This document shows positions 319 to 10,567 of a stretch of 10,567 nt of DNA, piece after piece. The notes below the pieces were generated by a model, which had not been told where the DNA came from, searched no databases, and saw only the letters and a list, made by a program, of their open reading frames with translations. This DNA is from an uncultured Flavobacteriales bacterium. GTDB lineage: Bacteria; Bacteroidota; Bacteroidia; Flavobacteriales_E; Vicingaceae. Both the position numbers and the translations under genes were made by a program. The DNA lies in assembly GCA_937925525.1 (NCBI GenBank), contig CALALS010000009.1, positions 1-10,567 of the forward strand. Direction: 5' to 3'. Within the stretch, counting starts at the first letter, position 1, and each line of letters opens with the position of its first letter.

Positions 319-2568
319 ATGTTTAAAAAAATAGGCTTTGCCTTCATAGCGCTTAGTTTTTCAACCCTCTCTAACGCACAATTTTTAGTTCACTCTAATT
401 CCATTGAAGTATTAGATTCTATTGGAAACAAACTGAACCATGCATGGGTTGGTGGTTTAAATTCTGTTCAGTTCTCTGAAATTGATTTAGATCTTGATGG
501 AAAAAAAGACTTGTTTACATTTGACAGAAGTGGTAATAAAATAAGAACTTTTAGAAATAACGGAGCCCAAAATACCGTAGATTATGTTTATGCGCCCGAG
601 TTTCATAATAGTTTTCCAAAAATGCACGATTGGGTTCTCTTAAGAGATTATGATTGTGACGGAAAAGAAGATATTTTCACTTATTCAAACGGTGGCTTTT
701 CTGTATACAAAAACACCTCAACGCCAGGAAATTTATCATTTGTAAAAATTAGTGACCTTGTTTTTTCTGACTATTCAAAAAACTCTACTCCGCCTCAAAT
801 GGCAAACCTATATGTTAGTTCAACTGACATTCCAGCTATAGATGATATTGATGGAGACGGAGACCTGGATGTAATAACTTTTTCCATTTTTGGTAGTTAT
901 GTGGAATACCACAAAAACATGAGTAAAGAACTTTATGGAATTTGCGATAGCTTAACGTTTAAACTAAAAAACAATTGTTGGGGTTTTTTTAGTGAAAATT
1001 TTTCTAATAACTCGGTAACATTGTCAGACACTTGCCCATCTAACGTAGTAAATCCTGAAAAAATAATAATGGGTGGTAATAAACATGCCGGCTCTACCCT
1101 TCTTACCCTTGATTTGAACAATGATGGTTTAAGAGATTTGGTTTTAGGAGATGTTAGCTTCAAAAATATGACCGCATTAATTAACGGTGGAAGTATTAAC
1201 AATGCTTACATGACCTCACAGGATAGTGCTTTTCCTAAGAACAACACCAACACCCTACCCGTAGATTTACAACTTTTTCCCGCTGGCTTCTATCTGGACA
1301 TTAATAATGACGGAAAAAAAGATTTAATAGTGAGCCCGGGTACTCCAAACGGTAGTGAAAACACCAAATCTTGTTGGTTATATACAAACAGCAATATCAC
1401 CAGCCAACCTAACTTTAATTTTTCAAGAAACAACTTCCTACAAGGCGAAATGATGGAGCATGGAGAAGGAAGTTACCCGGTTTTCTTTGACCACAACGGA
1501 GATGGACTAATGGATTTACTAGTAGGTAATTTTGTTTATTATGTTGATAATGCTTTTCCAAAATCGGCTATAGCACTTTACGAAAACATTGGCACAGCTT
1601 CACAGCCTAAGTTTCAATTAAAAACAAGAGATTATGCAGGAATAGCCAAAATTAGCCTTAACACTTTTAGCAATATGCCTACCTATGGAGTTTGTCCAAC
1701 TTTTGGTGATGTTGACGGAGACGGAGACCAGGATATGATTGTGGGTGATTACAACGGTAAAGTTCATTTGTTTACCAATACAGCAGGAGCCGGAAATACA
1801 GCCAACTTTGTTTTATCCCAAGCAGATTATCAGGGAATTGATGTTGGAAATTATGCAAAACCTCAACTGTTTGATATTTCAGGTGATAGTTTGCTAGATT
1901 TAGTAATTGGTAACCAAGCCGGAAAAATTGAATATTATAAAAATATTGGTACTAAAACCTCTCCTAGTTTTTCTCTACAAACTCAAAACTTGGGAAATGT
2001 AAATGTTACTAAAGTTGGAAATGTAAACGGGTATAGCCGCCCGTTCTTTTTCAAAAATGGAAGCCAAACAGAACTACTTTGCGGCTCATTGTCAGGTCAA
2101 ATTTTTCACTTTAATAATATTGATTCTTCAAGCTCTTCAACTTATAACATTATTGACACTAGTTTTTATGGAATTAATGAAGGAGCCAGAACAAGTATTG
2201 TAGGTGCTGATCTCAATAATGATGGTTTAACCGACTACGTTTTAGGAAATTACTCCGGAGGAAATAGTCTTTACATGGGGAGTAACGTTACTGATATTAA
2301 AGAAAGCTATTTTACTGATTTGAATTTAGAATTAACCATCTACCCCAATCCTACCAATGACAAGGTAACTATTTTATTCGCTAACCCCTATTTAACCAAG
2401 TTTGACATAAAGCTATTCGACCTTCAAGGAAAAGAGGTTTATTCAGAAAAACATAATTCAAACAATATTCAAATAGATGTAAGCAACTTGACTAAGGGTG
2501 TGTACGTCTTAAAAATAAACTCACTTGAAACCCCTGCATCATCCTATGATAAAATCATTAAATATTAA
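319..2568 (+). CDS. Secreted FG-GAP/VCBS-like repeat protein (beta-propeller-type, calcium-binding motifs) with a T9SS type A C-terminal sorting domain; paralog 1 of 3
   Basis: 749-aa ORF with signal peptide MFKKIGFAFIALSFSTLSNA|Q. It carries about 9-10 FG-GAP-like blades with DxDxDG-type loops, for example IDLDLDGKKDLFTF, DYDCDGKEDIFTY, IDDIDGDGDLDVITF, FGDVDGDGDQDMIVGD, ADLNNDGLTDYVLGN. The C-terminal ~78 aa (nt 2332..2565) are LTIYPNPTNDKVTILF...KGVYVLKIN, which is typical of a T9SS type A sorting domain (Por_Secre_tail). Confidence 0.88.
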   Translation: MFKKIGFAFIALSFSTLSNAQFLVHSNSIEVLDSIGNKLNHAWVGGLNSVQFSEIDLDLDGKKDLFTFDRSGNKIRTFRNNGAQNTVDYVYAPEFHNSFPKMHDWVLLRDYDCDGKEDIFTYSNGGFSVYKNTSTPGNLSFVKISDLVFSDYSKNSTPPQMANLYVSSTDIPAIDDIDGDGDLDVITFSIFGSYVEYHKNMSKELYGICDSLTFKLKNNCWGFFSENFSNNSVTLSDTCPSNVVNPEKIIMGGNKHAGSTLLTLDLNNDGLRDLVLGDVSFKNMTALINGGSINNAYMTSQDSAFPKNNTNTLPVDLQLFPAGFYLDINNDGKKDLIVSPGTPNGSENTKSCWLYTNSNITSQPNFNFSRNNFLQGEMMEHGEGSYPVFFDHNGDGLMDLLVGNFVYYVDNAFPKSAIALYENIGTASQPKFQLKTRDYAGIAKISLNTFSNMPTYGVCPTFGDVDGDGDQDMIVGDYNGKVHLFTNTAGAGNTANFVLSQADYQGIDVGNYAKPQLFDISGDSLLDLVIGNQAGKIEYYKNIGTKTSPSFSLQTQNLGNVNVTKVGNVNGYSRPFFFKNGSQTELLCGSLSGQIFHFNNIDSSSSSTYNIIDTSFYGINEGARTSIVGADLNNDGLTDYVLGNYSGGNSLYMGSNVTDIKESYFTDLNLELTIYPNPTNDKVTILFANPYLTKFDIKLFDLQGKEVYSEKHNSNNIQIDVSNLTKGVYVLKINSLETPASSYDKIIKY
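2332..2565 (+). other. T9SS type A C-terminal sorting domain of paralog 1
   Basis: The YPNPxxxxxxI...G(K/V)Y motifs are conserved at the C-terminus: LTIYPNPTNDKVTILFANPY...LFDLQGKEVYSEKH...LTKGVYVLKINS. Confidence 0.7.
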
Positions 2569-4846
2569 GTACCAACTTCTATTTGTTTCTTTTTTCATTA
2601 CGGCTTCCTTAAGCGCTCAAACTATTTTTAAAAGAGTTGACAGTATTAAAGTTGAAACTGCTACAAATGGTGTGTTTTATAAAAATGCTTGGGCAGGAGG
2701 GCTAAATTCTATTCAATTTTCTGAAATAGACCTTGATGGAGACGGTAAAAAAGATTTGTTTGCATTTGACAGAACAGGAAACAAAATCAAAACATTTTTA
2801 AACAAAGGTACTCCGGGTACAACCAATTATGTTCATGCCCCTCAATACGAAGACAAATTTCCACCTATTGATTCTTGGGTTTTACTGAGAGATTATAACT
2901 GTGACGGTAAAAATGACATCTTTACTTATTACCCTGGAGGAGTGAGTTTATATAAAAACATTAGCACTCCCGGTAATTTGGCCTTTGTTCAGGTCACTAA
3001 ATTAATACAGCATTACAATCCAACCGTAACTGTTCCCTACTCACAGATTTATTGCACTTCTATTGATCAGCCTGCAATAGATGATATTGATAACGATGGT
3101 GATCTAGATATTATAAACTTTGGGCAATTTGGAAGTTTTGTAGAGTATTACAAAAACTATTCAATGGAAACCTATGGGATTTGTGACAGCATTAATAAAT
3201 ATGAAATGAAAAATAAGTGTTGGGGGTGGTTTTATGAGGGAGGGGTTAGTTTTAATATGACGCTAAATATGCCAAAAGGAAATTGCTGGAATAATGTACC
3301 AAACCCTGAAAGAACTGCTAACGGAGGAAATAAAAACCTTAAACATGCCGGCTCAACACTACTTACACTTGATGTAAACGGAGATAGCGTTAAAGAATTA
3401 GTAGTTGGCGATGTATCTTACAATTACATGACCATACTGCATAATGGAGGAAGAGTGGACAGTGCTCACATGACCTCAGACGACACCCTATTTCCAAAAA
3501 ACCAAGGAAATACTGTTCCGCTTGGCTTAGACATTTTTCCTGGTGCCTATTACTTAGATATTAATAACGATAATAAAAAAGATTTACTCTTCTCTCCATT
3601 TTATATTACCCAAATTGCCGGTCAAACTTATGTGCAGAATTATGAAAGCGTATGGAATTATACCAATAGCGGTACAAATAATTTACCTAGCTTTACTTTT
3701 CAAAGTAAAAACTTTCTTCAAAAAGATATGATAGATTTAGGCGAAGGAGCCTATCCTGTATTTTTTGATTATGATAGTGATGGCAAAAAAGATTTAGTAG
3801 TAAGTAATTTTGGTTATTATGACTCTTCCGGCTATTATAAATCACAGTTAGCACTATATAAAAACACTGGATCTGCCACAGCTCCTCAGTATAAATTAAT
3901 TACAAAAGACTATCACGGGCTATCCAGCCATATTTTAAATACAGACTCCATGACCCGAACACAAGCCATTTACCCAACCTTTGGCGATGTTGATGGTGAT
4001 GGTGATAAAGATATGATTGTAGGTGAATTAACTGGCCGTTTGCACCTTTACACCAACACACCATTTATGGGAATAGCTTCCTTTACTTTAACCAAAACTT
4101 TTGTTGACTCTATAGATGTTGGCGATTTTTCTACCCCACAACTAATAGATTTAGACAGGGATGGTAAAATAGATTTAGTAGTGGGTGATATTTGGGGTAG
4201 ATTAAAGTATTATAGAAATATTGGAACCACTACCGTTCCGAAATGGAGTAAAGTTGCAGATACGCTTGGTGGGGTGAATATGTCTAAACCACCATATTTT
4301 TATTTAGGATATAGTGTACCGCATATATTTGATAATGGAGGAAGCTATGAAATGCTTGTTGGTTCTTCTTCTGGAGATGTTCACCATTATGATAACATTG
4401 ACGGAAATTTAGCCGGTAACTTCAATTTAAAAACCATAAATAAAATGGGCTTTTATGAAGGTATTAGAACTGCTCCTGCAGTTTACGACATTGACAGTAA
4501 TGCCCTTTGGGATTTTGTAGTGGGGAATTATGCCGGTGGTATAAATTTATACATGCAGGATATTTTAACCACATCTGATTTAACAGACGCATCCAACACA
4601 AAATTTGATGTTATTGTTTACCCTAACCCTGCAAATAATTCGATTAACATCATGCTTAATCAAAAGACTATTAGTAGCTACGACATTGATGTATTCGATA
4701 TCAATGGAAAATTGTTATACCAATCACAAAACCAATACGGCAATGTAGAAATTGACATCAGTACCTTTCCTAAAGGTATGTATATTATAAAAGTAAATTC
4801 ACCTCAAACATCATTTAGTAAACATGAAAAATTTATTAAACAATAG
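2546..4846 (+). CDS. Secreted FG-GAP/VCBS-like repeat protein with a T9SS type A C-terminal sorting domain; paralog 2 of 3. The start is called at the ATG at 2546; the ORF track's 2525 is a TTG.
   Basis: The ORF track gives 2525..4846, but the codon at 2525 is TTG. The first ATG (2546) gives a signal peptide MIKSLNIKYQLLFVSFFITASLSA|Q. It also reproduces the junction geometry of paralog 3, a 23-nt overlap with the upstream stop. The repeats include IDLDGDGKKDLFAFD, DYNCDGKNDIFTY, IDDIDNDGDLDIINF, FGDVDGDGDKDMIVGE, IDLDRDGKIDLVVGD. The CTD (4607..4843) is DVIVYPNPANNSINIML...KGMYIIKVNS. Confidence 0.88.
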   Translation: MIKSLNIKYQLLFVSFFITASLSAQTIFKRVDSIKVETATNGVFYKNAWAGGLNSIQFSEIDLDGDGKKDLFAFDRTGNKIKTFLNKGTPGTTNYVHAPQYEDKFPPIDSWVLLRDYNCDGKNDIFTYYPGGVSLYKNISTPGNLAFVQVTKLIQHYNPTVTVPYSQIYCTSIDQPAIDDIDNDGDLDIINFGQFGSFVEYYKNYSMETYGICDSINKYEMKNKCWGWFYEGGVSFNMTLNMPKGNCWNNVPNPERTANGGNKNLKHAGSTLLTLDVNGDSVKELVVGDVSYNYMTILHNGGRVDSAHMTSDDTLFPKNQGNTVPLGLDIFPGAYYLDINNDNKKDLLFSPFYITQIAGQTYVQNYESVWNYTNSGTNNLPSFTFQSKNFLQKDMIDLGEGAYPVFFDYDSDGKKDLVVSNFGYYDSSGYYKSQLALYKNTGSATAPQYKLITKDYHGLSSHILNTDSMTRTQAIYPTFGDVDGDGDKDMIVGELTGRLHLYTNTPFMGIASFTLTKTFVDSIDVGDFSTPQLIDLDRDGKIDLVVGDIWGRLKYYRNIGTTTVPKWSKVADTLGGVNMSKPPYFYLGYSVPHIFDNGGSYEMLVGSSSGDVHHYDNIDGNLAGNFNLKTINKMGFYEGIRTAPAVYDIDSNALWDFVVGNYAGGINLYMQDILTTSDLTDASNTKFDVIVYPNPANNSINIMLNQKTISSYDIDVFDINGKLLYQSQNQYGNVEIDISTFPKGMYIIKVNSPQTSFSKHEKFIKQ
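4607..4843 (+). other. T9SS type A C-terminal sorting domain of paralog 2
   Basis: VYPNPANNSINIML...VFDINGKLLYQS...FPKGMYIIKVNS. Confidence 0.7.
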
Positions 4847-7118
4847 CATTTTAGTCATTCTGTTAATTACTATTGTTTCTGTTACTGAAGCGCAAACCGT
4901 TTTTAATAGAGTTGACTCTGTTAAGGTAGAAACTGCCATAACCGGCATATTTTATAAAAACCCATGGGCAGGTGGTTTAAACTCTTGCCAACTATCTGAC
5001 GTTGATTTAGACGGAGACGGTAAAAAAGACCTTTTTGTTTTTGAAGCATCGGGTAATAAAATCAGAACTTTTTTAAACAAAGGAACTGCAGGAACAACTA
5101 ACTACGTACATGCACCTCAATACGAAACTCAATTTCCTCCGGTATATGGTTGGGTATTGTTTAGAGATTATAATTGTGATGGGAAAAATGATATGTTCAC
5201 ATACTACCCAACTGGCTCTGGTATTAGCTTATATAAAAATGTTAGTACACCCGGAAATTTAGCTTTTGTACAAGTAACTAAATCATTACGCTCTTACAAC
5301 CCTGCTACAATGGTAACCTCTAATATTTATGCTTCGGTGAGTGACCTACCAGCAATTGATGATATTGATAATGACGGAGATTTAGACATTTTAACTTTTG
5401 GCTTTGTAAGTAATTATGTTGAGTATTATAAGTGTTTTTCAAAAGAAAGTTATGGTATTTGTGATAGCACCAACTTTCAGCTTAAAAATAAATGCTGGGG
5501 ATGGTTTTATGAAAGTGCTAACAGCTTTAACATGAATTTAAACATTCCTAAAAATAGCTGTAGCGGAAATGTACCAAACCCTGAAAGAACATCTAATGGC
5601 GGTAATGAAAAAGGCGGCAACAAACACGCTGGCTCAACCCTTTTAACACTTGATTTGAATGGCGATACCGTTAAAGAATTAATTGTAGGAGACGTTGACT
5701 CTAAGTATGTTGTGGCATTGATTAATGGAGGTAAAAGAGATAGTGCGCATATCGTTTCGGAAGACACGCTTTTCCCGAAAAACCATGTTTCTACCAGTAA
5801 ACTGAATTTACCTGTTTTTCCCGCAGGATATAGTATTGATGTAAATAATGACAACAAAAAAGACTTATTGTTTGCTCCTTTTATTTTAACCGCCACTTCA
5901 GCAAAAATTTATGCCGAAAATGCCAACAGTATATGGCATTATAGAAACAACGGTACCAATAATCTACCCAACTATGTTTTACAAAGTAAAAACTTCTTGC
6001 AAGGAAACATGATTGAAGTGGGCGAAGGAGCCTATCCGGTTTTCTTTGACCATAATGGTGATGGTTTAGAAGATTTAATTGTAAGTAACTTTGGTTATTA
6101 TGACTCTACAGGTTATTACAGGTCTTCATTGGCGCTTTATCAAAACACCGGAACAGCTAACAATCCTAAGTTTAAGCTAATTACAACCGACTACATGGGA
6201 TTATCTACACATATACTAAATATAGATTCTATGAAACGTACTCAATCTTTGTACGCTACGTTTGGTGATGTAGATGGTGATGGAGATAAAGACATGATTG
6301 TTGGAGAACTAACCGGTAAAATTCATTTGTACACCAATACTCCTACTATGGGAGTAGCTAATTTTAGCTTAACTAAAACCTATGTAGATTCTATTGATGT
6401 GGGCGATTATTCTGCGCCTCAATTAATTGATTTAGACCGTGACGGAAAAATAGATATTGTAATTGGAAATAGATGGGGAACTTTGGCTTTTCATAAAAAC
6501 ATTGGAACCACTTTAGTACCCAAATGGAAATTGGTAAAAGACACTTTAGGTGGAATTCAAATGAAAAACCCTCCAAGTTATTTCTTAGGATTTGCTGTGC
6601 CATGCTTTTTTGACAATGGAGGACAGTATGAATTATTGGTTGGAGGAATGGAAGGAAACGTAAGGCATTACGACAACATTGATGGAAACGTTTATGGGGG
6701 TTATAGCCTAAAATCTAATAACGTAATGGGATTTTATGAAGGAATGAAAACTGCTCCTGCCGTTAATGATATTGATAATGATGGGCTGTGGGATTTTGTG
6801 GTAGGAAATTATGCAGGTGGTGTAAGCCTTTACAAACAAGATTTAATTACCAATGCTGTTTGGGAGAAAGAAGTAAACGGACGAAATGATTTTGCTATTT
6901 ATCCAAACCCTACCGATAATAACTTTACCATTTCATTAAACTATTACCCAACAACAGAAGTAGTGGAAGTTTACAACTCTTTAGGAATGTTGGTAGAAAA
7001 AAAACTCATCATGCAAAAGCAAACAGAAATAAATACTGCAGGCTGGGAAAGAGGAGTATATATCATTTCTATTTCGGGTAACGGAAAAAGTAAGTTTAAG
7101 AAACTGGTAAAAATGTAA
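4824..7118 (+). CDS. Secreted FG-GAP/VCBS-like repeat protein with a T9SS type A C-terminal sorting domain; paralog 3 of 3
   Basis: 764-aa ORF with signal peptide MKNLLNNSILVILLITIVSVTEA|Q. By eye it is about three-quarters identical to paralog 2 over the N-terminal ~130 aa and clearly more diverged from paralog 1. The repeats include VDLDGDGKKDLFVFE, DYNCDGKNDMFTY, IDDIDNDGDLDILTF, FGDVDGDGDKDMIVGE, IDLDRDGKIDIVIGN, NDIDNDGLWDFVVGN. The CTD (6888..7115) is DFAIYPNPTDNNFTISL...RGVYIISISG. Confidence 0.88.
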   Translation: MKNLLNNSILVILLITIVSVTEAQTVFNRVDSVKVETAITGIFYKNPWAGGLNSCQLSDVDLDGDGKKDLFVFEASGNKIRTFLNKGTAGTTNYVHAPQYETQFPPVYGWVLFRDYNCDGKNDMFTYYPTGSGISLYKNVSTPGNLAFVQVTKSLRSYNPATMVTSNIYASVSDLPAIDDIDNDGDLDILTFGFVSNYVEYYKCFSKESYGICDSTNFQLKNKCWGWFYESANSFNMNLNIPKNSCSGNVPNPERTSNGGNEKGGNKHAGSTLLTLDLNGDTVKELIVGDVDSKYVVALINGGKRDSAHIVSEDTLFPKNHVSTSKLNLPVFPAGYSIDVNNDNKKDLLFAPFILTATSAKIYAENANSIWHYRNNGTNNLPNYVLQSKNFLQGNMIEVGEGAYPVFFDHNGDGLEDLIVSNFGYYDSTGYYRSSLALYQNTGTANNPKFKLITTDYMGLSTHILNIDSMKRTQSLYATFGDVDGDGDKDMIVGELTGKIHLYTNTPTMGVANFSLTKTYVDSIDVGDYSAPQLIDLDRDGKIDIVIGNRWGTLAFHKNIGTTLVPKWKLVKDTLGGIQMKNPPSYFLGFAVPCFFDNGGQYELLVGGMEGNVRHYDNIDGNVYGGYSLKSNNVMGFYEGMKTAPAVNDIDNDGLWDFVVGNYAGGVSLYKQDLITNAVWEKEVNGRNDFAIYPNPTDNNFTISLNYYPTTEVVEVYNSLGMLVEKKLIMQKQTEINTAGWERGVYIISISGNGKSKFKKLVKM
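6888..7115 (+). other. T9SS type A C-terminal sorting domain of paralog 3
   Basis: IYPNPTDNNFTISLNYYP...VYNSLGMLVEKK...WERGVYIISISGNG. Confidence 0.65.
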
Positions 7119-9189: not shown

Positions 9190-9240
9190 AAATTTGAAGT
9201 GTTGAAGGCTAAGTTTTAAGTGTTAAATAAAAACTTCTCC

Positions 9241-9252
9241 CTTGAGAGATGG
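9241..9252. repeat. Left arm of an imperfect inverted repeat (CTTGAGAGATGG) flanking the small minus-strand ORF
   Basis: The reverse complement of 9565..9578 is CTTGCGAGAGATGG. This equals CTTGAGAGATGG with a 2-nt insertion (CG). The arms lie about 320 bp apart and enclose the ORF at 9283..9543. Confidence 0.4.
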
Positions 9253-9282
9253 AGAGAGTGATTAATTTCTAGTGCCTATTTC

Positions 9283-9543
9283 CTAATTCTTAGTTGTAGT
9301 TCTGATTTCAGACAATGTTTTAATACCTAAGGACTCCATATAAAGAATCAAACATGAAATAGACTCACCCTCCCAAGCATTTTCATAAATATTAAAGTTA
9401 CTCTCGGCTTTTTTCAAATCTTTAAGGGTCGTCTTATTTAAATCTATTTTTAAATAAGATGAAACTTCTCTCAAGTATTCCTCTATTCCTTCACACTCCC
9501 TTGGCCAACTTGAAATAGCCTCATTTAATAAATTATTTTCCAT
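9283..9543 (-). CDS. Hypothetical small acidic protein (86 aa) with no recognisable domain
   Basis: It is the only ORF of appreciable length (86 aa) in the 9190..10112 non-coding gap. The product is MENNLLNEAISSWPRECEGIEEYLREVSSYLKIDLNKTTLKDLKKAESNFNIYENAWEGESISCLILYMESLGIKTLSEIRTTTKN, Glu/Lys-rich with no TM segment or obvious motif. It is convergent with the flotillin gene. A coding call cannot be confirmed from sequence alone. Confidence 0.4.
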   Translation of the reverse strand: MENNLLNEAISSWPRECEGIEEYLREVSSYLKIDLNKTTLKDLKKAESNFNIYENAWEGESISCLILYMESLGIKTLSEIRTTTKN

Positions 9544-9564
9544 AAATTTTATCTCGTTATACCC

Positions 9565-9578
9565 CCATCTCTCGCAAG
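9565..9578. repeat. Right arm of the imperfect inverted repeat (CCATCTCTCGCAAG, rc CTTGCGAGAGATGG)
   Basis: See the left arm at 9241..9252. It lies 22 nt upstream (in minus-strand orientation) of the small ORF start at 9543. Confidence 0.4.
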
Positions 9579-9658
9579 CGTCCGCTTGTGAGTAAAAATA
9601 GCAATAAATTAGTTTACTTCAGCTTTAGTTTCCACTTTTAGAAGCACTGACTAAAACC

Positions 9659-10078
9659 ACTTAAGCAAGGTACTACAGAACTTTACACAAGTGTTGAACA
9701 ACTTTACCTGCTTTTACAACAACTTGAGATAGGCATACAATGACTTATCCGACTTATTCCGTTACTTACGCTTGATTTACAACCACTTGAGATGGATGTC
9801 CAGCTACTTACGCTGTATGTACATAAACTTACCGGACTTGTTCATTAACTTACGCTTGATGTTTTTTGACTTACGCTACTTCTAACACAACTTACCCTGC
9901 TTCTTTTGCAGCTCACGCTGTTTGTATTTTGACTTACGCATGAGATATTTTAACTTACGCTTTATGTTTTTGAACTTACGCTGCTTCTCGCATAACTTAC
10001 CATGCTTGTATTACCACTTACGCTGCTTACTCCGCAACTCAAGAGCCTTGTCATTTAACTAAAAACAGATGTAATAAC
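9659..10078. repeat. Non-coding tandem array of ~20 units with an exact 21-bp period; conserved 5' half (consensus ACTTACGCTG) and variable 3' half
   Basis: Unit starts fall at 9659+21k for k=0..19, each beginning ACT(T). The fully conserved core ACTTACGC(T/A) occurs at 9764, 9806, 9848, 9869, 9932, 9953, 9974 and 10016. Variants ACTTACC(G/C/A), ACTTATCC, ACTTGAGAT and GCTCACGCTG occur at the other positions. The only length deviations are a compensating +1/-1 pair, at units 9890 (22 bp) and 9912 (20 bp). More degenerate ACTT-phased units extend upstream to ~9616. There are stops in all six frames. Confidence 0.85.
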
Positions 10079-10112
10079 ACCAAAGGGAAACAACAGAAAA
10101 CAAAAGGCTTTT

Positions 10113-10567
10113 TTAATACACCAAAAGCTCTTGCAGTTTTTGCTCAAAGCGTTTGTTAGGCATAAAGTTTTCTTCTAATTGGTTAATAAACGGTATGGGC
10201 GTATCCAGCGCACCCACTCTCACTACCGGAGCATCTAAGTTTTCAAAGCAGTGTTCGTTTATCAAACTAGCAATGTCGGCACCAATACCACCCGTTAAGC
10301 TATCTTCGTGCAATACAATGGCTTTGCCTGTTTTGTTTACAGAGGCATAAATGGCTTCGGTATCTAATGGAGCCAGTGTGCGCAAATCAATTAAATCTGC
10401 AGAAATGTTGGGGTTTTCATTCAAATAACTCAATGCCCAATGCACGCCCAAACCATAAGTAATTATGCTCACATCTGTTCCTTCTTTTAAAAGCTTGGCT
10501 TTACCAAACGGTAAGGTATAATAATCATCAGGAATTTCTTGGGTAACGCTTCGGTAAAGTGCTTTAT
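10113..10567 (-). CDS. Partial CDS (3' portion; the gene continues beyond the window end): 2-oxoacid (pyruvate/branched-chain alpha-keto acid) dehydrogenase E1 component, transketolase-like C-terminal domain (beta subunit or fused alpha/beta)
   Basis: The minus-strand translation is open to the window edge: ...PDDYYTLPFGKAKLLKEGTDVSIITYGLGVHWALSYL...ADLIDLRTLAPLDTEAIYASVNKTGKAIVLHEDSLTGGIGADIASLINEHCFENLDAPVVRVGALDTPIPF... This matches the conserved E1-beta / transketolase C-terminal domain pattern (DVTIITYG, IDLRTLxPLD, GGxGAEIAAxIxExxFxxLDAPVxRV). The 'M' in the ORF track is an internal GTG (Val) codon. Confidence 0.85.
   Translation of the reverse strand, partial: KALYRSVTQEIPDDYYTLPFGKAKLLKEGTDVSIITYGLGVHWALSYLNENPNISADLIDLRTLAPLDTEAIYASVNKTGKAIVLHEDSLTGGIGADIASLINEHCFENLDAPVVRVGALDTPIPFINQLEENFMPNKRFEQKLQELLVY

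Follow-up and report, generated by a model that had tools for sequence, protein, structure and literature searches.

A strictly phased array of 21-bp units behind an E1 dehydrogenase gene, probably one copy of a dispersed satellite family in an uncultured Flavobacteriales bacterium

Is a long tandem array of short units that starts directly behind the stop codon of a gene a structure belonging to that locus, or has it come from elsewhere? The question is raised by a non-coding array of twenty 21-bp units behind an E1 (2-oxoacid dehydrogenase) gene in a 10,567-nucleotide stretch of DNA (hereafter the window; contig CALALS010000009.1 of GenBank assembly GCA_937925525.1) from an uncultured Flavobacteriales bacterium of the Vicingaceae. 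The element is recently inserted and absent from close relatives, and is not a conserved regulatory structure of the locus. In our view, the array probably represents a single copy from a family of non-coding satellites (minisatellites) that is small, dispersed and lineage-specific: a 501-bp block made up almost wholly of units stands in place of 7–9 bp immediately 3′ of the E1 stop codon, and a homologous array lies 3′ of the stop codon of ftsZ. The 21-bp array belongs to a known but rare kind of element.

Two phased arrays and their empty sites

The body of the array (9659–10078; like the blocks and edges described below, an unstranded feature) is delimited by its register, its consensus and a shuffle test, and consists of 20 units of exactly 21 bp starting at 9659+21k (k = 0 to 19), the register in which the original prediction for this locus had placed them. 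ACT opens 19 of the 20 units and ACTTA opens 13; of the occurrences of ACTT, 17 are in register and three lie at an offset of +9. Autocorrelation, proposed with that prediction as a check of the period, bears it out: identity is 0.54, 0.50 and 0.51 at lags of 21, 42 and 63, with a background of ∼0.26, and the lag-21 identity over 9659–10078 amounts to 0.566 as against 0.270 ± 0.022 in 2000 shuffles (z = 13.3), the highest value reached at any lag in any of these shuffles being 0.378. A tandem-repeat finder (TRF), the other check proposed, did detect the repeat, though only in its more homogeneous part (9915–10028). The compensated +1/−1 slip that had also been described is not present within 9659–10078; out-of-register relics are confined to the low edge, where ACTT occurs at 9616 and 9634 with spacings of 18 and 25.

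On the plus strand, the unit consists of ACTTACGCT followed by 12 variable nucleotides among which T13 and T15 are conserved (consensus ACTTACGCTGCTTGTACTACA); on the minus strand, along which both flanking genes are read, the unit becomes nnnnnnAnAnnnAGCGTAAGT. The consensus is matched at positions 1–5 in 16–20 of the 20 units, at positions 6–9 in 12–13, and at T13 and T15 in 18 units each, while the remaining positions agree in ∼8–10 units, which is near random; the best-conserved base is C2 (20/20). These counts support the conserved core, variable half and strict 21-bp phase that had been proposed. A weak 9/12 sub-periodicity is also present, with CTTA at unit positions 2–5, CTTG at 11–14 and autocorrelation bumps at lags 9 and 12, and T-tracts occupy unit positions 15–17 in six units; at lags 7 and 14 the autocorrelation is at background, and there is no 7-nt sub-period. 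Each of the six reading frames carries between 5 and 19 stops, and the array is non-coding, as predicted. The array recurs identically in an independent assembly (ERZ869938 NODE_4916), and is therefore not an assembly artefact.

The E1 gene, whose 3′ end (Transketolase_C) occupies 10113–10567 on the minus strand and of which the full E1_dh/Transket_pyr/Transketolase_C form is visible in relatives, ends in the window with a stop codon at 10113–10115 (minus strand), and the array starts right after it. Degenerate in-register units (ACCAAAGGG..., ACAAAAGGC...; ACCAA, ACAAA) occupy 10079–10112, reach the stop codon and form, seen in the direction of the genes, the upstream edge of the insert. Its downstream edge is made of degenerate, out-of-register relic units (9612–9658), and the repeat-derived insert, 501 bp at 9612–10112, consists almost wholly of units. 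The insertion boundary is marked by the original E1-downstream 21-mer, TAATTTATTGCTATTTTTACT (9591–9611, minus strand), beyond which lies an open reading frame (ORF) for a small helical hypothetical protein of 86 aa (ORF86; 9283–9543, minus strand). The E1 dehydrogenase 3′ end and the 86-aa ORF are the flanks that the original prediction had named, and both lie on the minus strand.

Two close relatives, with 89–96% nucleotide identity in the flanking genes, have 7–9 bp in place of the 501-bp insert. One of these (Ga0118733, locus L237; 93.7–95.6% identity to the window) reads E1-TAA-AACAAAT-TAATTTATTGCTATTTTTACT, so that the 21-mer comes 7 nt after the E1 stop codon, and where it has AACAAAT the window has the unit-derived sequence, followed by the same 21-mer. 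The other is the sister genome GCA_030426475.1 (L003), which contains the single close homologue of ORF86 among 5.8 billion proteins. Its locus is collinear with the window (E1, ORF84, convergent flotillin gene) at 89–91% nucleotide identity, and its E1–ORF84 spacer measures 80 bp and contains no array. The contig of a closer relative, L243, stops 8 nt before the start point of the array and is therefore without bearing on its presence. The E1 site being empty in such close relatives, the notion of a conserved, locus-specific structure did not hold. The product of ORF84 is 87% identical to that of ORF86 and is kept in the sister genome without any array; therefore, ORF86 is not functionally tied to the array. 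Past the 21-mer the gene varies: the window and the sister genome have ORF86 and ORF84 there, respectively, L237 has a 346-aa ORF unrelated to these, and in L243 an Imm8 immunity gene follows, and because of this difference among relatives we regard the E1–flotillin gap (window 9190–9611) as a flexible islet.

The second array emerged from a metagenome scan with the pattern ACTTACGC-N13-ACTTAC-N15-ACTTACGC, which returned 86 loci, nearly all of them unrelated homogeneous or coding repeats, and among which locus L206 (ERZ869936 NODE_1768; its assembly is a sibling one of similar coverage) stands apart. Its array (L206 5805–6182) has 18 units with the same register, core and T13/T15 as that of the window. 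BLAST similarity between L206 and the window is restricted to the arrays, and the flanks are non-homologous. The L206 array begins 15 bp past the ftsZ stop codon, at the end of the ftsA–ftsZ cluster and ahead of a 230-aa hypothetical ORF (ORF230); it has the same orientation relative to the flanking genes as the array of the window, and the junction TAAAACC|ACTTA is common to L206 and the low edge of the window array. The L206 FtsZ falls into one cluster, at ≥90% identity, with the FtsZ of the sister genome GCA_030426475.1. L206 belongs to the lineage of the window, and the two probably come from the same genome. A BLASTN search of the same genome had been proposed as a check of whether the array is single-copy, and with a homologous array behind ftsZ in the same lineage it is not.

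As with E1, relatives exist in which the ftsZ site has no array, namely L228 (97.8% identity over 7.6 kb), L234 and L227 (90–91%). In L206, ∼1.3 kb comprising the array, a hairpin with a 13-bp stem and ORF230 lie between the ftsZ stop codon and the ftsZ terminator hairpin, which is retained farther downstream. In both empty sites TTAAAACAAA stands right after the stop codon, which is only a hint of a target preference (n = 2); around the two filled sites (n = 2), no clean target-site duplication was found. The hairpin of L206 has a perfect stem (CACCAUUGGUUAA...UUAACCGAUGGUG; L206 5760–5795, minus strand) and lies in the spacer between the array and ORF230 (z = −3.8 for the spacer); no counterpart of it was found at the window copy. 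The ftsZ–yqeY gap (region of L206 4970–6200) is hypervariable within the lineage, containing nothing in L227, a 596-aa protein of the type IX secretion system (T9SS) in L228 and L234, and the array, ORF230 and a 1359-aa T9SS protein in L206.

Turnover of the units and constraint on the core

A central block of the array (units 9–13; 9848–9952) is near-identical to a block of L206, units 9, 10, 11 and 13 of the window agreeing with units 9, 10, 11 and 12 of L206 at 19, 20, 21 and 20 of 21 positions, respectively. Window unit 12 has no counterpart in L206, where exactly 21 bp are deleted and a hybrid unit remains. Homology between the two arrays also extends to the first and last units, and the other units agree at only ∼14 of 21 positions. 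Inside the window array, closely similar unit pairs (9/14 at 18/21, 10/15 at 17/21 and 4/8 at 15/21) indicate higher-order duplications of 4–5 units, and L206 has the same pattern. Both arrays have degenerate edges and a more homogeneous centre. The unit-exact indel, the higher-order duplications, the decayed edges and the shared central block are satellite signatures of unequal recombination and gene conversion.

The units of the window match their consensus at 64% on average, whereas the host flanks diverge from those of array-less relatives by 2–10%. Because the internal divergence so far exceeds that of the flanks, the arrays would have arrived at both sites as pre-formed, already diversified blocks, and further source copies would therefore be expected somewhere in the genome or its population. 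Once in place, ectopic recombination or gene conversion between copies would homogenise the array centres, and whole-unit recombination could account for much of the perfect register.

Constraint was assessed on the 20 nearest-neighbour unit pairs (≥15 of 21 positions matching) from both arrays. Only 18 of 80 mismatches fall into core positions 1–9, compared with 34 expected (binomial p = 1.1e-4, a value that is indicative only, as the unit pairs are non-independent). T13 and T15 are also spared of mismatches, and the information profiles of the two arrays coincide. Non-unit indels number zero in the 38 units of both arrays, although the decayed low edge does carry indels. The core (ACTTACGCT, T13 and T15) therefore appears to be slower-evolving, and both the sequence of the core and the length of the unit seem to be kept. 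The depletion of core mismatches agrees with the earlier view that this is not a simple young slippage repeat.

Since the core evolves slowly and unit length is strictly kept, the units can be read as putative protein recognition sites, a plausible interpretation of these sequence patterns. Each unit would then be a constrained site, and most probably a sequence-specific DNA-binding or recombination protein would read one site per two helical turns. Such recognition may serve the spread or maintenance of the element itself and not host housekeeping.

Several points weigh against the reading of the array as a dispersed satellite with recognition sites. Two copies were found in the sequence scanned, which fell short of a whole genome, and the origin of L206 and the window from one genome is inferred, not proven. 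The preference for gain at two sites over loss in the contigs of five relatives rests on parsimony. Neither terminal inverted repeats nor a clean target-site duplication nor a transposase was found that would point to a mechanism of insertion; nor was a candidate binding protein, rep or par gene found near the arrays. The core 8-mer has no occurrence outside the arrays in 133 kb of related sequence (window and L206 included), where, however, only ∼2–4 would be expected by chance, and the recurrence of the core motif elsewhere that the original prediction had suggested looking for was thus not observed. To these points is added the non-independence of the unit pairs. A scan for 21-bp periodicity in ∼100 kb of related genomes found nothing beyond the two arrays.

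Competing explanations

Several known identities were tried for the array and rejected. No match was obtained with Rfam (E ≤ 1) or in a tRNA scan (ARAGORN), and folding of the RNA of the two strands is not more stable than that of shuffled sequences (z = −0.85 and +0.09), and a structured non-coding RNA was rejected. An origin from plasmid or phage iterons is contradicted by the neighbours (E1, flotillin, T9SS proteins, ftsA/ftsZ), by the lack of a rep gene and by BLAST searches against 72,556 plasmids and 50,697 phage records, which gave no match; a pattern scan of viral contigs returned unrelated repeats only and did not find the array family. A partition site of the parC/parS/sopC type was rejected on the grounds that no parA, parB or parR Pfam family occurs among the scanned ORFs of the 10.6-kb window or beside the L206 array. 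The array is also not a CRISPR array, as the original prediction had rightly said: CRISPR repeats of ∼23–50 bp alternate with unique spacers of similar length and are accompanied by cas genes or a leader, whereas here the core measures 9–10 bp and the ‘spacers’ 11–12 bp, the variable halves are related between units, and no cas domains occur among the scanned ORFs of the window. Type III toxin–antitoxin loci consist of a few direct repeats of 34–45 nt, a terminator and then a toxin of the ToxN, AbiQ, CptN or TenpN kind. Here there are 18–20 units of 21 nt, the downstream ORFs have no toxin-family match and the sister genome keeps ORF84 without repeats, and this identity too was rejected.

The neighbouring genes were searched for a partner of the array. 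No recognisable DNA-binding gene was found among the window ORFs in a Pfam scan, and for ORF86 (Pfam E ≤ 0.01), ORF230 (E ≤ 0.001) and the 346-aa ORF neither Pfam nor, at a significant level, PADLOC, PHROG or NCBIfam gave a match. The predicted model of ORF86 is an all-helical bundle (predicted local distance difference test score 80) without a fold match in the PDB; besides ORF84 of the sister genome its remote homologues number only six, and it is unrelated to ORF230. Inverted repeats of ≥10 bp (7-bp seed) are absent from 9540–10115. A scan for sigma-70 promoters and terminators gave few consensus matches, the sigma-70 consensus being uninformative for Bacteroidota, and inspection by eye found scattered near-matches only to the Bacteroidota −7 motif TAnnTTTG.

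The strict phase could also point to a protein-binding array that works for the host, in which, along the lines of the original prediction, the 20 sites, all on the same helical face, would seed a nucleoprotein structure cooperatively. Past the stop codon, this structure would form a transcriptional roadblock or an insulator, serve for titration or in a centromere-like role, or regulate the downstream ORF. This is conceivable, and we regard it as doubtful. It would explain the exact 21-bp phase over 20 and 18 units, the constrained core with T13 and T15, the weak 9/12 sub-periodicity and the shared orientation and position right after a stop codon at both loci, and the T-tracts at positions 15–17 could give in-phase bending. 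However, the sites are empty in relatives at 90–98% identity, and the array is therefore dispensable for the expression of E1, ftsZ and ORF84/86. Moreover, no rep, par or DNA-binding gene lies beside either copy, the downstream ORFs are mutually unrelated, ORF86 matches no DNA-binding fold, and the core motif is not seen elsewhere in the 133 kb. A function at the RNA level, with the array co-transcribed with the upstream gene and the repeated GCGUAAGU acting in the 3′ untranslated or intercistronic RNA, seems unlikely to us: a protein or small-RNA sponge does not need an exact 21-nt register, and neither an Rfam match nor a consensus structure was found. Whether as such a sponge, as a processing or stability element or as a repeat RNA of the type III antitoxin kind that serves the downstream ORF, a function of this sort would agree with the common sense orientation at both loci, with the position of the L206 insert upstream of the retained ftsZ terminator hairpin and with the strong 13-bp hairpin between the L206 array and ORF230, and the sense RNA is unstructured and purine-rich, which would leave its motifs accessible. 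Yet the window copy has no comparable hairpin, ORF86 and ORF230 are mutually unrelated and have no ToxN/AbiQ, PADLOC or Pfam match, and the sister genome keeps ORF84 without an array, whereas a toxin lacking its antitoxin would not be tolerated.

Birth of a neutral minisatellite in situ by replication slippage, with neither constraint nor mobility, is very unlikely. Degenerate edges, a more homogeneous centre and whole-unit changes are what it would leave behind, but a homologous array with homologous first and last units at an unrelated locus largely refutes it. In addition, the divergence among units is far above that of the flanks from array-less relatives, mismatches are depleted in the core, and the array body is free of non-unit indels though the relaxed low edge has them. 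It is hardly credible that the array is the decayed remnant of a gene coding for 7-residue (heptad) repeats. A unit of 21 bp does equal seven codons, and N-L-R-x-[FLM]-x-x is the reading of one plus-strand frame, which with its 5 stops has fewer than any other frame of the window and in which T13 is a second codon position. Every frame of both copies is nevertheless interrupted by 3–19 stops, at different places; conservation has no 3-periodicity, the best-conserved C2 would be a third codon position, and the least-interrupted window frame is antisense to both neighbouring genes. The relatives have no array where an intact ORF would be expected, and no intact ORF with the repeat was seen in any relative.

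The dispersed satellite family remains our preferred reading. In a more far-reaching reading, which we think rather improbable, the arrays are functional, portable nucleoprotein modules: a lineage-specific protein with sequence specificity would polymerise on the 18–20 sites, phased at two helical turns, and the modules would mark or drive the exchange of cassettes at flexible islets immediately downstream of conserved genes. Both copies do border hypervariable cassettes: behind E1 these are ORF86, the 346-aa ORF or Imm8, and behind ftsZ they are T9SS cargo genes. With strictly phased units and a constrained core, clean filled and empty sites in genomes only 2–10% diverged, and points of insertion right behind the stop codons of essential genes and beside hypervariable cassettes, the family lends itself to studying how such arrays move, by what the core motif is read and whether the arrays promote turnover of cassettes. 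If the array is only a selfish satellite, it would provide a useful strain-level marker and change no major view; if the arrays are protein-bound modules of cassette exchange, they would not be passive satellites but sites of recombination or insulation, of a new kind in Bacteroidota.

Described repeat elements and other repeats encountered

The original prediction had recognised nothing similar among described elements of Bacteroidota, but BrickBuilt of Porphyromonas gingivalis is comparable and is the closest described analogue of the 21-bp array. BrickBuilt is an intergenic dispersed minisatellite with 23-nt units, up to ∼23 per array, in which the second half of the unit holds most of the non-conserved sites and whose presence varies among related strains and species (Klein et al., 2015, PMC4596501). 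It occurs in 19 copies per genome, with 0–6% indels within arrays, and has leader and tail segments and IS5-like terminal inverted repeats (PMC4596501). Although it is the best-studied example in Bacteroidota, its function and transposition mechanism are not established (PMC4596501). Common to both are occurrence in Bacteroidota, intergenic and dispersed positions, spacer-less tandem direct repeats with units of about two helical turns (21 and 23 nt), a conserved first and a variable second unit half, and presence or absence among relatives. Unlike BrickBuilt, the insert described here is wholly unit-derived, with no leader, tail or inverted repeats found; it is known in 2 copies, lacks non-unit indels and shares no sequence similarity with BrickBuilt.

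Dispersed non-coding satellite families are reported as rare in prokaryotes by a survey of 261 reference genomes, in which clear cases with long units were found only in Leptospira interrogans and Methanocella conradii (Subirana and Messeguer, 2019, PMC6749651). The present arrays resemble these satellites, which lie as related non-coding arrays at several unrelated intergenic positions within one genome and for which no mechanism of transposition is known (PMC6749651). In contrast to their units of 37–69 nt and usually more homogeneous copies, the present units are 21 bp long, have a core-plus-variable structure and are highly diverged within an array. Intergenic direct repeats of heptamers (TAACTGA-type) have been described in Beggiatoaceae, Cyanobacteria and some Bacteroidetes, and an association with local gene rearrangement was suggested by the author (MacGregor, 2015, PMC4679880). 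These resemble the present case in that one strain has an array where its closest relative has a short repeat-free spacer in the same neighbourhood, and differ from it in unit length (7 as against 21 nt) and in lying mostly just upstream of start codons, in sense orientation, and not directly after stop codons (PMC4679880).

With head-to-tail units and related arrays at unrelated loci, the two arrays have the features of a prokaryotic non-coding satellite family. Like transposable elements of the miniature inverted-repeat type (MITEs), they are dispersed copies with homologous ends that are variably present (two loci, five relative contigs with empty sites); they fail the terminal-inverted-repeat part of the MITE definition because the insert ends in degenerate units without inverted repeats, and in L206 no more than 15 bp lie beyond the final unit towards ftsZ. 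In Streptococcus pneumoniae, BOX elements have the structure boxA-boxB(n)-boxC, with a boxB of ∼45 bp and a stable secondary structure of RNA or DNA. They share with the present arrays a modular intergenic constitution, a variable number of tandem units, distinct end modules, dispersal and the lack of a transposase of their own, and differ in that the 21-bp array has no stable secondary structure and that its units measure 21 as against ∼45 bp. Plasmid iterons and partition sites (P1 incA, R1 parC) and LytTR operators occur in 2–12 copies beside the gene of their binding protein or at promoters of a response-regulator regulon, and in an operator of the LytTR type 12 bp lie between direct repeats of 9 bp. 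These sites and our arrays have in common direct repeats with a phase of about two helical turns, in numbers that would allow cooperative binding, and a 9-bp core with a 12-bp spacer gives 21 bp; the 9/12 sub-period may thus recall LytTR geometry, an analogy that we note as a lead. Unlike these sites, the arrays described here have no binding-protein gene alongside, run to 18–20 copies, are chromosomal, follow stop codons and are dispensable in relatives.

Other repeats were met in the scans. A loose scan of a genome collection for five ACTTA at 21-bp spacing gave at least 120 matches and, among the matches listed, mostly 7-bp microsatellites and unrelated 21-bp repeats. Non-coding 21-bp arrays with an ACTTA core and a variable remainder, often in divergent promoter regions, occur in various metagenome-assembled genomes (MAGs) of Bacteroidota (L005, L030, L039, L048, L089); because their gene contexts are heterogeneous and differ from those of the window family, we claim no phylum-wide class. 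In the Tannerellaceae MAG Cf509_bin38, two loci (L040, L084) share a satellite of 42 bp (2 × 21) whose units, ACTTACGTCTTTAAAGACGTG / ACTTACGTCTCAAGACATGTG, are palindromic, with 17–18 units of 21 bp at each locus; this is a further example of a satellite dispersed in Bacteroidota. Microsatellites of heptamers, (ACTTAnn)n, are common among the matches listed (L008, L022, L038, L047, L065, L073, L111, L113 and others), especially in MAGs of Bacteroidota and cyanobacteria, and recall the heptamer repeats of MacGregor (2015).

A recurrent 21-bp repeat, ACTTACGCAAGGAATATGAGG, is present in 3–6 copies in many unrelated metagenome contigs (L125, L126, L135, L143, L155, L157, L166, L172, L211–L213, L216 and others) and in four IMG/VR viral contigs; it is probably phage-borne and coding or regulatory. 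At L182 (513–617; AUXO018200744.1), five near-identical units, ACTTACGCTTTTTGTATTTGA, share 18 of 21 positions with window unit 14; the flanks are unrelated and GC-richer, and a small hairpin lies at the end of the array, which may be a distant young relative of the window family or a coincidence. The remaining genes of the window comprise, besides flotillin, ORF86 and E1, a 195-aa ORF and three FG-GAP/T9SS genes. The latter are tandem paralogues on the plus strand (319–7118) encoding proteins of 749, 773 and 764 aa, each of which has FG-GAP repeats and, at its C terminus, a T9SS sorting domain; the genes are ∼64–70% identical to each other in pairwise nucleotide comparisons, and the first two overlap slightly.

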